DNA from: Myxococcota bacterium
Lineage (GTDB): Bacteria > Myxococcota_A > Polyangia > Polyangiales > Houyiibacteriaceae
DNA length: 15,187 nt
Reading direction: 5' to 3'
Assembly (NCBI GenBank): GCA_039030515.1
Contig: JBCCEA010000061.1
Coordinates: 1 to 15,187, forward strand
Shown here one piece after another: positions 1 through 15,187 of the stretch (within the stretch, counting starts at the first letter, position 1; every line of letters begins with the position of its first letter). The notes beneath the pieces are model-generated. The model was not told the origin of the DNA. It ran no database searches and saw nothing but the letters and a program-made list of their open reading frames with translations. The position numbers were made by a program, and so were the translations under genes.

Positions 1-449
1 CGCTTCGAGGGCGCTGGCTCTCTGACATCCCTGGACGGCCGCGGGGGTTGCGACAAATGCACGCCATAGAGCCGCTTACCTTCGATGCTCGTCGCTCAAC
101 GTTCCAAGAAGTACGCCTTCGCTCCTGCGCTTCGAGGGCGCTGGCTCTCTGACATCCCTGGACGGCCGCGGGGGTTGCGACAAATGCACGCCATAGAGCC
201 GCTTACCGTCTCGCGCCTCGTCGTCAGGTACCAATGTGTACCCTCCTCCTCCTCGCCCCAGCGGGCCTCGCTAGACCTGAACGCCCGCTTACCTCCCATG
301 CTCGACGTTCGAAGTAGCAAAACTACTCCTTCACGTCTGCGCGTGCGGGGCGCTGGGCGTTCAAGCCCATCGAGACGCGCTGGTCGGGGGCGCTGGCGCT
401 CTGACATCCCTGAACGGCCGCGGGTGTTTGGGGATGCACGCCATAGAGC
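1..449 (-). repeat. Cluster 1 of ~127-128 nt structured hairpin repeats (REP/REPIN/MITE-like), truncated by the window start
   Basis: Exact 80-bp direct repeat at 1-80 and 128-207 (period 127) and a third diverged copy at 388-449. 84-146 closely matches 2389-2450. 257-384 is an inverted copy of the unit at 2563-2690/2941-3065. Units fold better on the minus strand (G-T wobbles, tandem G.A). Confidence 0.92.
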
Positions 450-538
450 GGGTGAACTCCTGGAGAGGTTTGAATTGTTGCGATAGTCTTGGAGCACCCT
501 TCATTAGAGAGTGGTCTCAGTAACGAGGTGCTCCGGTT

Positions 539-970
539 GTGAAATCCGCGAATCCAGCAGCATTTACCTCAGAAGACATACGTAAGATGCTCCGGGAGGT
601 ACAGATGGAAGCAACTGTCGACGCCTCTGATGCAAGAGAACCCGTGCGAGTTTTTGCCTGCCCCTTTGCCCACCAGGGAGTGCTGGTTGCTTGGGATATG
701 GAACTTCATACCGTACAGCCTGGGCTTGCTCTGCTGACGGATGCAGTTTCCACAGTTCGACTTCAGCTCTTCTACCCGAACCAGACGACCGTGGTCCGAG
801 TCCAGACGCTGGATAGGGCGACAGATGGACATCAAGGAGCACATTTGTTTCATTTGGTATCTCTGCCGGCATACGCCGTTGCTGCGTTTGGTGTGTCCAA
901 CTCTGCAGAGTTTCTATCGCTGGCTCATACTAAAGTGCTTTGGCACGAAGCAGAACATTCGACCGCTTAG
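539..970 (+). CDS. hypothetical protein (143 aa)
   Basis: GTG start with GAGGTG at 524-529 as a plausible RBS; globular-looking composition; longest ORF in the interval. No family recognised. Confidence 0.6.
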   Translation: MKSANPAAFTSEDIRKMLREVQMEATVDASDAREPVRVFACPFAHQGVLVAWDMELHTVQPGLALLTDAVSTVRLQLFYPNQTTVVRVQTLDRATDGHQGAHLFHLVSLPAYAVAAFGVSNSAEFLSLAHTKVLWHEAEHSTA

Positions 971-1012
971 TGCGCATTCGACCGCTCAGTGCGCATTCGA
1001 CCGCTTAGTGCT
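956..1012. repeat. 3 x 19-bp tandem repeat CATTCGACCGCTYAGTGCK
   Basis: Units at 956-974, 975-993 and 994-1012; the first contains the TAG stop of the 539-970 ORF. Confidence 0.95.
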
Positions 1013-1097
1013 CATTGTCTGGCCTGACGCTCCGATGAAGTGGATGATCAGGTTGCAATGACCGATGCCTACACGCTGTTAAATGCCGTGCGACCCG

Positions 1098-1892
1098 CTA
1101 ATGCTGCTCTCCAGTGAGTGCAGTTAGGAGCGAGACGATCTCTGCAAGCCGCACTCTCGCCTGTTCACCCGCCTGGCGAGAACTCAGTTCTCTACGCAAC
1201 CGCTCTCCCTCAAAGTAGAGCTGAACCACCGTGCGAATTAGATTCAGTCTCTGTTGTTGTACCGCGCGACGTTCACGCAGCAGTCGGTATTCATCTCGAC
1301 CGTACAGGACGCGATCCAGACGAAACACCATCGAGACTTCGAGCGTGAGGTCGTCGTCTGACGAAAGTGAGGTGCGATCCACGTCGTCCGTCGCATATTG
1401 AGAGAGGTCTCGTCCCTGACCTCGACGGCCACTCATCCTTAGTGTGGGAATCCAGCCAGAACGCCTGCCGCGTCTTGTGATCTTCTTTACTTCCCGTACC
1501 GAGGATGCGTGGTGACGCAGTGCGGCTGAAACCAGTCGATCTACTCGTTGATGGGCTTCCACAGATATTCTCTGCGATCGGAGCGAAGACCGCCTCTCAT
1601 CTACACCGTCACCAGAAGACGTCTCATCGCTGGATGCTTCAGCGGCTTCGAGCGTGTATGCCCACGTGTCGGCCTCGAATGACCCCTCAAAGCCCGCCTG
1701 GGCCTCTGCCCGATATGAAACCACCGACAACATCAATGCCGCCGTGCAGTGTAGGCCTACCCTGTAAATCGATCTCCGCCTTTTCGAGGTTGTGTGGCGA
1801 TACGATTCGACTCGTGCACTGAGGAAGCTCAGATGTGGAATGGTAAGACTCAATCCGCTTTGCGGCGTAAAGTGCCTGTCACACATGTTCAA
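1098..1892 (-). CDS. exported hypothetical protein, possibly TolC/outer-membrane-efflux-like single repeat (true start probably downstream of 1892)
   Basis: Basic plus hydrophobic signal-like stretch ending AEA-Q. It is followed by a helix (LVSAAL), RSGWIPTLRMSG strand, LEVSMVFRLDRVL strand and long amphipathic helices (LIRTVVQLYFE...LTALTG), resembling one OEP repeat. Confidence 0.65.
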   Translation of the reverse strand: MNMCDRHFTPQSGLSLTIPHLSFLSARVESYRHTTSKRRRSIYRVGLHCTAALMLSVVSYRAEAQAGFEGSFEADTWAYTLEAAEASSDETSSGDGVDERRSSLRSQRISVEAHQRVDRLVSAALRHHASSVREVKKITRRGRRSGWIPTLRMSGRRGQGRDLSQYATDDVDRTSLSSDDDLTLEVSMVFRLDRVLYGRDEYRLLRERRAVQQQRLNLIRTVVQLYFEGERLRRELSSRQAGEQARVRLAEIVSLLTALTGEQH

Positions 1893-1940
1893 GACCGCAC
1901 CCAGCAGTGCTGCGTAGAGCTGGCGGGCGGATAGGCTCCC

Positions 1941-2303
1941 TCACCAAGATGCCCTTGCTTCCAGACGACGAATTGCTTCTGCGGCCTGGACTTGCTCCCA
2001 ACGGCACCATCGAGTGCACGGTAGAGGCTCAGCATGCGTCACATACTCCGGCATGGTCTGGTCGACCGGCGACTGTAGACCAGGCTTCGATATCGAAGGC
2101 CGTCTTCGGAGCCTGAGGTTCAGTACCGCCTCAACTGAAGATTCCCGCACGACCCCTCGCCGATGTTCAGACCGATCGTATCGTCGCTCCATCCGCGCTC
2201 GGACGAGAAAACGGGGCGCGAGACCACTCGTCTTCGACGGTTGGCAGGCGGTCATGTGCAGACTGAGGAGTACCCCACACCAAAGTATTTCGTCTCGGAA
2301 CAT
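1941..2303 (-). CDS. hypothetical protein, possible lipoprotein (120 aa)
   Basis: The ORF-track start at 2372 lies inside the repeat. ATG at 2303 gives MFRDEILWCGVLLSLHMTAC, a signal-like N-terminus with a lipobox-like Cys. Co-oriented with the 1098-1892 ORF. Confidence 0.45.
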   Translation of the reverse strand: MFRDEILWCGVLLSLHMTACQPSKTSGLAPRFLVRARMERRYDRSEHRRGVVRESSVEAVLNLRLRRRPSISKPGLQSPVDQTMPEYVTHAEPLPCTRWCRWEQVQAAEAIRRLEARASW

Positions 2304-2348
2304 AGCCTTGTATCGGCACTGCTGTGCTTCCAGTTTCCTCCGTTCTTT

Positions 2349-3078
2349 CCCAGGGGGCCTATGTCGGCCCAAACAGCTGCTGACCGAAGATGCTCGTCGC
2401 TCAACGTACCTAGAGTACGCCTTCGCTCCTGCGCTTCGAGGGCGCTGGCTGTTTGAACCACCCTAGGCCCCCTGGGGATGTGGTTGCTGAGTCGGCCCAA
2501 ACAGCTGCTGACCGCCTTGCGCCTCGTCGTCGTCAGGTACCCACTCGTATCCTCCTCCTCGGCCCAGCACGTCTCGATGGGTTTGAACGGCCAGCGCCCC
2601 GGAAGCACAGGAGCGCAGGAGTAGTTTCGCTACTTCAAGCTCCGAGCATGGGAGGAAAGCAGGCGTTCAGGCCTAGCGAGGCGTGCTGGGGGGCGCTGGC
2701 TGTTTGAACCACCCTAGGCCCCCTGGGGATGTGGTTGCTGAGTCGGCCCAAACAGCTGCTTGCCGCCTTGCGCTTCGTCGTCGTCAGGTACCCACTCGTA
2801 CCCTCCTTCTCGGCCCAGCGGGCCTGGGTTGGTTGAAACAGCGAGCGCCCCGGAAGCGCGGGAGCGCAGGAGTAGTTTCGCTACTTCAAGCTCCGAGCAT
2901 GGGAGGAAAGCAGCTGTTTGGGCCGACATAGGCCCGTTGGAGCGCGTCTCGATGGGTTTGAACGCCTAGCGCCCCGGAAGCACAGGAGCGCAGGCGTATT
3001 AACGCTACTTCGAACGACGAGCACGGGAGGAAAGCAGGCGTTCAGGCCTAGCGAGGCGTGCTGGGGGGCGCTCGCTGT
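2349..3078. repeat. Cluster 2 of ~127-128 nt structured hairpin repeats (six central hairpins, both orientations, nested)
   Basis: Unit 2349-2476 has a perfect 13-bp terminal inverted repeat CCCAGGGGGCCTA/TAGGCCCCCTGGG. A 70-bp exact direct repeat lies at 2440-2509 and 2691-2760. Plus-strand units are at 2563-2690, 2814-2940 and 2941-3065. Confidence 0.95.
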
Positions 3079-3086
3079 GGGCCGGG

Positions 3087-4820
3087 CTACAAATGTAGGG
3101 GGAACTGCCAGCGGCCATGTAGACCTCGGATATAGGCCCCGAGGGATACAATCGACGCAAGAGAGAGTGATCCGAAGAGCAAAGGTCCAACGGATGCAAA
3201 CAAGGAGTGGGGCACTCCGATGAGCAACCAGACAGTGCTGCCTGAGATCACTGTTAGCGATAACGGCACCCACCATTTCCAGCCTTCTGCCAAGGCATCG
3301 ACCCGGAATCGGCACACAATCCACAATGCGATAACCAAAAGCCCACAGCATTTCGCTGCAAAGAAGAAGGCGGCAAGCAAAGTGCCGTTGCCTGGCTCCA
3401 TTGGGACGGCCCATCCTCCAAAACAGAACGCGACCAGAGTCGCCACTAAAGATGCCAGGTAAAATAGCTCAATCGATGTGCAAAATGAATGTCTGCTGCC
3501 GGTCAGTCCTTTTAGTGATGCAAGGGACAGTATAATTTGCACAAAAAAAGCAGGAATTAGGGCAAGAGCCAAAGGGTTTGAGAAGGCGAACCAGGTCCAC
3601 GGATAGATGTCTTGGCCCCGAACAATCGAGTCGAGGTCTAGCGTTCCTTCGAAAGCCAGCAAAACCACCAGTAGAGCCAATACGGGAAGTAACGGCACTG
3701 TAACGCTCAGAATTCGACGGCAAGCTGATCGCGATTCTGATGATTCCGGCAGAAAGATTCTTTGTCCAGCTCTCATCACAATGCTGCTGATCAGAATCAG
3801 CCCTCCGTCTAATCCGCCTGCTAGGATGTATCCGGAATACGGCAACGCTAGAAAGTAAAAGATCAAAAAGCCTAAGATGGAGATCATTATGCCTAGCTGG
3901 TGCAGGGAAGCACTCCAACCTCTAGTTGTCTTCCGAGAGGCCGACGTGTTGCTCCTTATGCTAGCTGAAGACAGAGCTGATCTTTTGGGTAGTTGCCACA
4001 ATGGTCCTGTTGGAAGAAAACAGAACAGCAAGAAGAGTACTGCCCCAACCAAACCATGGCGAATCGTCTTCGAGCGCTCCTGTTTTTCCGCCGAATAGCC
4101 TGGCAAGGGGACTGATAGCTCCATAGTTGCCGGGGCATCGGGAGCTCTAATCTCGAGGATCGCGAATTCCTTACCGGGAACGGCTACGAAGTCTGAAAAC
4201 GAACGGACTTTCACTCTGTCTATGCTCACGATGGTATCGCCGACCGCAGTGCCGGAGTTTGCTGCACGTCCGTTTGGGTTCTGCTCCGCGATGATAAGCC
4301 CCATGCCCGTCGGATGATCCATCATCGTAACTCCCAAGAAATCAGAGATCTCTCGTGCTTGTTGCGTGCGACCAAGCGCTCGCGAAAGGCGACCCGAGGT
4401 CGTGGGAGTGAAGTCAAGAGTCACGTTTTCTAGCGTCCCTGAAACGGTGCCGCGATTGTCGGCCGCAGAAAAGAACACTCGAATGGAGCCGCGAAAAGTC
4501 ACCCGACCCCCGACGGCATTCACTAGTTCGTTTCCAACCGTAAACTGCAAAACCGACTCAGTTTGAGTGCGACCCTCTGCCTGGGCCTGCACAGCCGTCG
4601 GAAGTGCTCCCGGACGCGCTACCTCACCTTCGAAGCTCACGATGGCGCTTTGGCCTACTGGAAATCCCTCTCCCCAGATCTCTGCAGTTTCTTCAGGTCT
4701 AAGATGATCTGTCGATATCTTATGCAGCAATACAAGTGCGGCGTCCTCTGACAGCTCACATGCTACGAGCGAAACGAGGGATGTTAGTGTGAGCAGATGC
4801 AGCGGAGAAGTTCGGTTCAC
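3087..4820 (-). CDS. putative lipoprotein with PDZ domain fused to a degenerate NuoH (complex I subunit 1)-like multi-TM domain
   Basis: Lipobox LVAC (Cys21). PDZ-like segment GLIIAEQNPNGRAANSGTAVGDTIVSIDRVKV. C-terminal hydrophobic domain with NuoH-like motifs GTLDLDSIVRGQ..PWTWFAFSNPL, FGGWAVP, and RFRVDALAEGWKWWVPLSL. Confidence 0.8.
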   Translation of the reverse strand: MNRTSPLHLLTLTSLVSLVACELSEDAALVLLHKISTDHLRPEETAEIWGEGFPVGQSAIVSFEGEVARPGALPTAVQAQAEGRTQTESVLQFTVGNELVNAVGGRVTFRGSIRVFFSAADNRGTVSGTLENVTLDFTPTTSGRLSRALGRTQQAREISDFLGVTMMDHPTGMGLIIAEQNPNGRAANSGTAVGDTIVSIDRVKVRSFSDFVAVPGKEFAILEIRAPDAPATMELSVPLPGYSAEKQERSKTIRHGLVGAVLFLLFCFLPTGPLWQLPKRSALSSASIRSNTSASRKTTRGWSASLHQLGIMISILGFLIFYFLALPYSGYILAGGLDGGLILISSIVMRAGQRIFLPESSESRSACRRILSVTVPLLPVLALLVVLLAFEGTLDLDSIVRGQDIYPWTWFAFSNPLALALIPAFFVQIILSLASLKGLTGSRHSFCTSIELFYLASLVATLVAFCFGGWAVPMEPGNGTLLAAFFFAAKCCGLLVIALWIVCRFRVDALAEGWKWWVPLSLTVISGSTVWLLIGVPHSLFASVGPLLFGSLSLASIVSLGAYIRGLHGRWQFPLHL

Positions 4821-12399: not shown

Positions 12400-12486
12400 C
12401 CTGTCGCCAACTGCCTGTCGCCAACTGCCTGTCGCCAACTGCCTGTCGTCAACTACCTGTCGTCAACTACCTGTCGTCAACTACCT
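12400..12486. repeat. 6 x 14-bp tandem repeat: (CCTGTCGCCAACTG)3 (CCTGTCGTCAACTA)3
   Basis: Units start at 12400, 12414, 12428, 12442, 12456 and 12470, plus a partial CCT. Confidence 0.97.
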
Positions 12487-12652
12487 TGCGATTACTTCGA
12501 TGCTATTTTCCCGCCGCGGCGCGCGTCAACGTCCTCTTTGGCCGGATTCAAACGCGCTCCTCTAGCCCAAAGAATATCCGATCATGCCTTGGCCCCGTGG
12601 GTACCTCCAAACATTGCTGGACGTCGAGGCAATTGCGTGGTTACCCAGTTGC

Positions 12653-15041: not shown

Positions 15042-15187
15042 CCCAGCGGGCCTATGTCGGCCCAAACAGCTGCTTTCCTCCTCGCTCGTCGTCGTCAGGT
15101 ACCTTAAGTACCCTCGTCCTCCTCGCCACGGGGGCGCTAGCTGTTTGAACCAACCTAGACCCGCTGGGGGGTGGTAGTTGAGTCGGC
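15042..15187 (-). repeat. Cluster 3 of the structured hairpin repeat family (one full unit 15042-15168 plus start of the next), truncated by the window end
   Basis: Terminal inverted repeat CCCAGCGGG/CCCGCTGGG, inner CAAACAGC/GCTGTTTG, central GGTAC-CTTAA-GTACC. Begins at the base after the HDOD TAA stop. 15169-15187 resembles the linker at 2477-2496. Confidence 0.93.

Follow-up and report, generated by a model that had tools for sequence, protein, structure and literature searches.

How one copy of a repeat comes to lie inside another copy, at the same internal position, is the question raised by this locus. The window, a complete 15,187 bp contig (C61) of a 4.08 Mb source genome (G000, 85% complete), contains copies of a 126 bp unit that runs from CCAGC to GCTGG and comprises a 29 nt left arm, a 68 nt core and a 29 nt right arm. 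The arms are complementary to each other and free in sequence, with the left arm mostly beginning CCAGC and the right arm ending GCTGG, and the core is conserved (GCTTWCC...GGGCGCT). The initial annotation had described three host units with one or two guests just before GGGCGCT, in either orientation, and had proposed a site-specific hotspot at which the element targets itself. All three nested arrangements were found in the sequence.

An uninterrupted unit with a 67 nt core at 15043-15167 (plus strand) defines the orientation called top throughout; its start lies 1 nt past the stop codon of a gene with an HDOD domain, and a partial next copy behind it reaches the contig end. The contig starts with tandem copies at 1-171 (plus strand), consisting of a partial unit (1-44), a linker and a unit ending at 171. 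In cluster 1, a host (plus strand) is split into a left part extending to unit position 86 (173-257) and a right part with unit positions 87-126 (384-423), between which lies a complete 126 bp guest in the same orientation (258-383, plus strand); the host resumes at TCGG-GGGCGCT with no base lost and none duplicated. Cluster 2 opens with a complete uninterrupted unit (2350-2475, plus strand), followed by a linker and a host left part that extends to position 86 and carries C>G at 85 (2477-2563, plus strand), a complete 126 bp guest in the opposite orientation (2564-2689, minus strand) and the host right part (positions 90-126; 2690-2726, plus strand), with bases 87-89 missing. A 251 bp duplication of this composite, 88% identical, supplies a second linker and host left part (2728-2814, plus strand), whose single slot holds a 124+126 dimer made up of a 126 nt member (2815-2940, minus strand) and a 124 nt member (positions 1-124, joined after GCT; 2941-3064, minus strand), before a truncated host right part (3065-3078, plus strand). 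The stop codon (3087-3089) of a minus-strand 577 aa ORF with a weak PDZ match lies 8 nt beyond this truncated end. The window also contains two stretches of short tandem repeats: three to four copies of a 19 bp repeat at 956-1016, 3' of a 143 aa ORF, and about six copies of a 14 bp (7 bp-like) repeat at 12400-12497, upstream of a minus-strand 219 aa ORF.

These assignments refine the initial annotation, which had placed the cluster 1 guest at 257-384 and the first cluster 2 guest at 2563-2690, and had counted the two units within 2728-3078, present as described, as separate guests. It had also reported host bases missing at the junctions, which holds for opposite-orientation joins (1-4 bases) and not for same-orientation guests, which are precise. 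In cluster 1 the apparent loss arose because one flanking base had been taken into the guest on each side and because the host had been compared with a ...GCCACGG allele; the ...GCTTCGG allele occurs in intact cores.

The unit is predicted to fold, and to do so better on one strand. With DNA parameters, the bottom strand, antisense relative to the upstream gene, gave the lower fold in 66/66 units, and the fold z-scores of the four closed units of the window ranged from -7.7 to -9.6. Arm mismatches on the sense (top) strand are 230 C.A versus 20 G.T in the 66 closed units of the source genome and 117 C.A versus 9 G.T in 83 units of relatives, an asymmetry to be expected if the bottom-strand fold is under selection, and also if the bottom strand is exposed and deaminated. 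Among 25 diverse units, two-sided changes were seen in 40 of 49 named pairs, inner helices included, and 92% of cells were paired compared with 33-37% when the structure was slid, although the structure was written from one member, which favors its score. Prediction and covariation together point to a folded strand that would form a rod of ~60 bp: a stem of 29 bp that is free in sequence, internal loops that are purine-rich and conserved, and a GTA[C/G/T] stem-loop at the apex. Perfect arms may be an outcome of copying, not of selection. Rfam gave no match in window 1-3300 and, among eight loci, a single miRNA match (E=0.67).

Iterative blastn identified 87 clusters (27 kb) in the source genome, many of them at contig ends, with 126 intact cores, 66 of which have fully paired arms. 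Outer left ends lie -6 to +12 nt from a same-strand stop codon in 28/55 cases (ORFs of at least 150 aa), compared with about 6% of random spacer positions within the same distance. Where cluster edges face a stop codon, the nearest intact core has its top strand as the sense strand in 42/52 cases, and among relatives' units 29/61 left ends and 6/61 right ends are at a stop. The top strand being sense at gene stops, the mRNA carries the weaker fold. A function as an mRNA hairpin was considered and is disfavored because it is the antisense strand that has the wobble pairs; a weaker hairpin in the mRNA may, alternatively, have been selected for. No link to the replication strand was seen (17 versus 23 clusters), as judged from a skew proxy that is weak.

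Genome-wide mapping of the junctions, as the initial annotation had called for, gave positions far from random. Left ends were recognized by arm patterns in an anchored census, from which all counts are taken because a jump-alignment parse over-called short segments in the flanks. Among 115 left ends in the source genome, 61 have unit DNA directly 5': 17 are end-to-end joins from position 124 or 125 to position 1, one (C4:641) was taken for a left end but is a right end, and the other 43 begin within another unit. Allowing for a C-run, 34 of these 43 internal joins are at the 86|87 site, after a conserved CT, with 9 in the same and 25 in the opposite orientation; five others are at 36-38 and four elsewhere. 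The proposed hotspot is therefore supported, with the qualification that joins overcount independent events. Same-orientation joins read 86>1 and 126>87, and all six right joins resume exactly at 87 with zero loss and zero duplication, in agreement with the reported absence of target duplication. Opposite-orientation guests follow host position 86, usually with 85 C>G, and the host resumes at 88-91; in this class the joins were read against host positions 88-91, where the C-run blurs the exact base, and one of the 25, placed at 82 by the script, was reassigned by eye. The exact pattern of the opposite-orientation join had 13 matches in the source genome versus none for a reversed control.

The CT dinucleotide is a common element of these junctions. 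CT directly precedes 86|87 on the top strand in 117/128 relative cores and 74/126 intact cores of the source genome, in which a further 37/126 have CG instead, and self-joins elsewhere also follow CT: at 124 (16/61 joins), at 38 (three joins) and at 11 (C21:43374). All of these are left joins; the right joins (GCTGG|TCG) do not fit a C^T cut. On the bottom strand, the alignment would put the 86|87 site in a conserved 3x2 purine loop, on its GNA side, the loop being our own reading. A second type of CT-ending join is seen at C46:26587-26788 and C21:43950-44021, where 38 nt left fragments (positions 1-38) are repeated before a full unit.

The reading we prefer, with slightly less than even confidence, is that the unit is a non-autonomous REPIN/ERIC-like hairpin that an HUH enzyme acting in trans would release as a folded single strand and join at nicks adjacent to CT. 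It builds on the observed ends, site, lack of duplication, strand asymmetry, stop-codon anchoring and mosaic arrays. A single-strand cut-and-join enzyme, most likely a RAYT-like HUH Y1 protein, would free the folded unit at the foot of its stem, and the freed unit would be joined at nicks beside CT dinucleotides without target duplication. The best target would be the unit's own conserved CT (85-86), in the 3x2 internal loop of the folding strand, so that copies would come to land in copies, at the positions observed. To judge from the mosaic junctions, a few such events would have been followed by local amplification and arm recombination that spread, flipped and shuffled composites in the lineage, with tandem amplification as modeled for BIMEs in the available text of PMC3333891. 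The joins 86>1 and 126>87 favor insertion, because a circular unit recombining by homology would leave 126>1 dimers instead. In the accessible portion of the same source, single-stranded DNA is the only substrate of TnpA-REP, which cleaves it at CT, joins strands and assembles tandem BIMEs, and REPINs are described as inserting into or beside REPINs (PMC3116915, available in part). Against an HUH/Y1 enzyme, the C^T rule of E. coli fails at the right join and the strand with the CT folds poorly; a GTAG foot 5' of the palindrome is absent in the unit.

The number of events behind the nested copies bears on the most serious rival, a founder effect in which, after one or two ancient insertions at 86|87, nothing but copying of composites, gene conversion and inversion through the arms took place. 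The nested copies are not independent events, and there were fewer events than joins counted. Most of the opposite-orientation class shares the junction string CTCGGC|CCAGC, the opposite junction being a G-run; a single guest left arm is common to the class, and its cores are varied (23 distinct of 28, picked by a loose rule), so founder copies were spread as composites and shuffled. On these sequence patterns, the class is probably the product of one or a few events, spread as a ~250 bp composite. Composites with mixed junctions also fit a founder effect: same-orientation guests with opposite-type right joins were found at C22:227, C24:19728 and C69 (listed also as C69/C9:1), and at C44:11957 a guest lies between inverted host-left pieces. 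Guests therefore flip or recombine through their arms, which may explain the nesting in either orientation reported by the initial annotation; both orientations are present, which need not reflect insertion in both. Pattern scans of 300 genomes of the order found nesting signatures at control level only, with a single informative case among 62 loci scored, so the nesting burst is specific to this lineage among the genomes searched. A founder effect does not readily account for guests of another arm type found right after position 86 in two hosts whose arms are private to their locus (C43:216 and C21:39464; same orientation, host-right absent), for the other joins that follow CT, or for the informative case in a relative of another genus (G121). 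There, behind a tRNA gene, positions 87-126 of an older unit directly adjoin the end of another unit, as comparison of loci L336 and L178 shows; this is an insertion or a duplication, with its break at the same site. The two hosts and the G121 locus indicate independent use of the 86|87 site, as far as sequence comparison goes, and we consider a founder effect on its own possible and rather unlikely. No pair of empty and filled alleles was seen at an orthologous locus of the source species.

Less likely still is an origin without any dedicated transposase, in which nesting, perfect arms and partial tandem copies all arise by template-switch repair after a hairpin is extruded and host structure-specific nucleases nick it at the internal loop. 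This would suit the lack of an enzyme gene flanking the units, arms that remain complementary out into stop codons differing between loci, and arrays that finish in partial copies at variable positions. Complete units with exact ends at 1 and 126, joined without microhomology, are hard to obtain by slippage, and arm types common to distant loci imply that whole units move.

A passenger role, in which the unit is moved by a resident IS110 (bridge-RNA) recombinase using a CT core, appears very improbable. IS110 elements (NF033542) are found inside units at 32|33 at four loci: C3:161434-162712 (L350), C4:1-582, the end of C58 and a remnant of ~60 bp at C21:39626-39690, the last rejoined to the core via a 9 nt match. 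The IS110 left end has this 9 nt match to unit positions 25-33, 124 nt dimers are compatible with a CT-core join, and REPs are the targets of IS621, an element with a CT core (PMC11208160, available text). However, the IS110 inserts at 32|33 rather than 86|87, its left end and the nesting site share no match as long as 9 nt, and nested guests retain the terminal GG, so CT is present only at the left join. The IS110 is a parasite of the repeat, as IS621 is of REPs, with a site and a join pattern that differ from those of the nesting. Relatives of this IS110 were detected in metagenomes at one distant locus. Finally, that the nested layout is an assembly chimera at a collapsed repeat is the least credible explanation. 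In its favor, many clusters are at contig ends, no contig piece from four runs spans cluster 2 and none listed bridges by 31 bases on each side. Against it, a k-mer assembler cannot invent joins without overlap, the opposite-orientation start join was counted 28 times, in clusters spread over 20 contigs (16/28 in contig interiors, >300 bp from a contig end), and joins are crossed by 16-29 bases in contig pieces of three runs. Copy number and order within a cluster may be wrong in the assembly.

The preferred reading, transfer of a folded single strand, places the activity in trans: the unit encodes no enzyme, so the claim that the element targets itself does not hold literally. PF01797 had no match in the source genome at E<=0.001, and an HMM built from relatives' Y1 proteins matched a single long RAYT-like Y1 gene at C48:3223-4134 (L349; E 7.6e-30), whose 303 aa product has HYH and YTLANP (YxxxNP) motifs and scores 33.8 bits against NF047646, below the cut-off of 80. 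YxxxNP is the class 2 (TnpA-REP) signature, and long members without REP-like flanks are described in the available text of PMC6006769, which also provides background on Y1 transposases. This protein is a candidate mobilizer only. No unit occurs within 8 kb around its gene, and none adjoins the Y1 loci of relatives (0/96; 30+20+17+29); in a source genome that is 85% complete, a repeat-flanked Y1 gene could be unassembled. The Y1 family is present in 71/150 Polyangiales genomes, in many as multiple copies. Among the 150 genomes, 46 have both unit and Y1, 29 the unit only, 25 Y1 only and 50 neither, an odds ratio of 3.2 among kin that are not independent, and 7/24 unit-rich genomes have no Y1 match.

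No recurring mobilizer-like gene was seen by eye in the top 45 ORF clusters from 182 unit loci and the flanks in the source genome. The flanking clusters are housekeeping genes, kinases and response regulators, the housekeeping genes including those we take, by sequence recognition, to be nrdJ-like and lepA-like. The source genome, at 85% completeness, had no match to the reverse transcriptase family PF00078, none to DUF559 and none to IS91 Y2, the control of this last search having matched nowhere either. It has one 635 aa GIY-YIG ORF, on a contig without clusters, and five tyrosine recombinases, none adjoining clusters. A short contig, C72 (62% GC), encodes a protein judged by eye to be relaxase-like and is possibly a plasmid or a misbinned piece.

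A covariance model built from 26 units matched 75/150 genomes of the order (probably Polyangiales), one unpublished genome being left out, and 27/151 genomes in a sample of the phylum, 18 of these outside the order with weaker scores. Scanning GTDB with the core pattern returned at least 121 stretches, and the titles among the 80 matches listed are mostly Polyangiales, Sandaracinaceae, Myxococcales/Myxococcota or Deltaproteobacteria. Two sequencing runs with over half of the query words are marine metagenomes from one study, and no RNA dataset was listed among the runs matching query words. Plasmid, E. coli and viral collections gave no match, with three pattern matches left unscored by the model. 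In five loci outside the order (L140, L145, L146, L148 and L153), a second, outer inverted-repeat pair encloses the core, making longer elements.

Some relatives' units follow tRNA 3' ends or sit in an rRNA spacer; in several relatives (L336, L141 and L178) they adjoin tRNA genes in this spacer, before the 23S rRNA. In several genomes, units with different arms are found 3' of the same genes, namely what we presume to be a lepA-like gene (L037, L048, L204 and L258) and a ribonucleotide-reductase-like gene (L057, L059, L065, L190 and L191). These are either old orthologous copies with replaced arms or the result of repeated targeting. A bolder version of the preferred reading, which we regard as doubtful, is that the units form an order-wide, inside-out hairpin class in which the folded core would be both recognition module and target, giving precise insertion without duplication by an enzyme other than a classical REP-flanked RAYT. 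The opposite-orientation composite, with a well-folded rod on each strand, would then be the better replicator (25 versus 9) and would have driven the burst.

No published description of the family was found in openly accessible literature, supplements excluded, or in Rfam, and look-ups of myxobacterial terms returned none in the available text of PMC3733652, PMC3184786 and PMC6006769. According to the accessible part of a 2007 review, mobilization of ERIC- or YPAL-like repeats by a transposase had no experimental support (PMC2229807). The movement of ERIC-, YPAL- and REPIN-like repeats is a question to which the self-insertions bring detail that is usually missing: element ends fixed to the base (at 1 and 126, or at 124 in a variant), a target fixed likewise (86|87, behind CT), a folding strand and an empty allele. 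With ends, target and strand defined, one can go straight to designing an in vitro cut-and-join assay based on short oligonucleotides. Besides marking gene 3' ends in half of the order as sampled, the family serves as a landing pad for IS110; lacking an enzyme, it is a well-mapped new repeat family of a familiar kind.

Among known systems, IS200/IS605 elements move by peel-and-paste and insert without target duplication 3' of a short motif, as the unit does. Unlike them, the unit has no transposase inside, a single hairpin spans the whole element and both orientations are present. Integron attC sites likewise have sequence-free paired arms and one strand favored for folding, whereas the unit lies at housekeeping-gene stop codons without cassette arrays or integron context, and insertion takes place inside its core. 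From IS110-dependent MITEs the unit differs in that nested guests have CT at the left join only and the guide-like match is to 25-33. With ERIC/IRU (127 bp) and YPAL it shares length class, a long imperfect rod and gene-adjacent, orientation-dependent placement (PMC2229807, in part). It differs from ERIC and TA-type MITEs in its CCAGC/GCTGG termini, which lack TA, and in nested joins without target duplication, and from ERIC and YPAL in being GC-rich and without an Rfam match; a blastn search of E. coli genomes at E<=10 returned nothing, a weak test because only one relative unit served as query.

The closest likeness is to REPINs and BIMEs, which are also non-coding, intergenic, multicopy hairpins (class of ~70-130 bp) with compensatory changes and tandem and nested clusters (available text of PMC3116915 and PMC3333891), and with which the unit shares CT-related joins and use as an IS110 target. 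REP ends often supply stop codons, according to the accessible portion of PMC3733652. The unit is, however, conserved inside-out, with a conserved core and free arms; its variable ends have no GT[AG]G, and GTA[C/G/T] forms the apical stem itself. It flanks no RAYT gene (0/96 Y1 loci of relatives, 0 at the C48 gene), and its self-insertions share a single fixed base, in contrast to the clusters of REPINs within REPINs, which the available text of PMC3116915 calls 'lacking obvious organization'. The unit works like a REPIN or an ERIC element, yet is a member of neither family.
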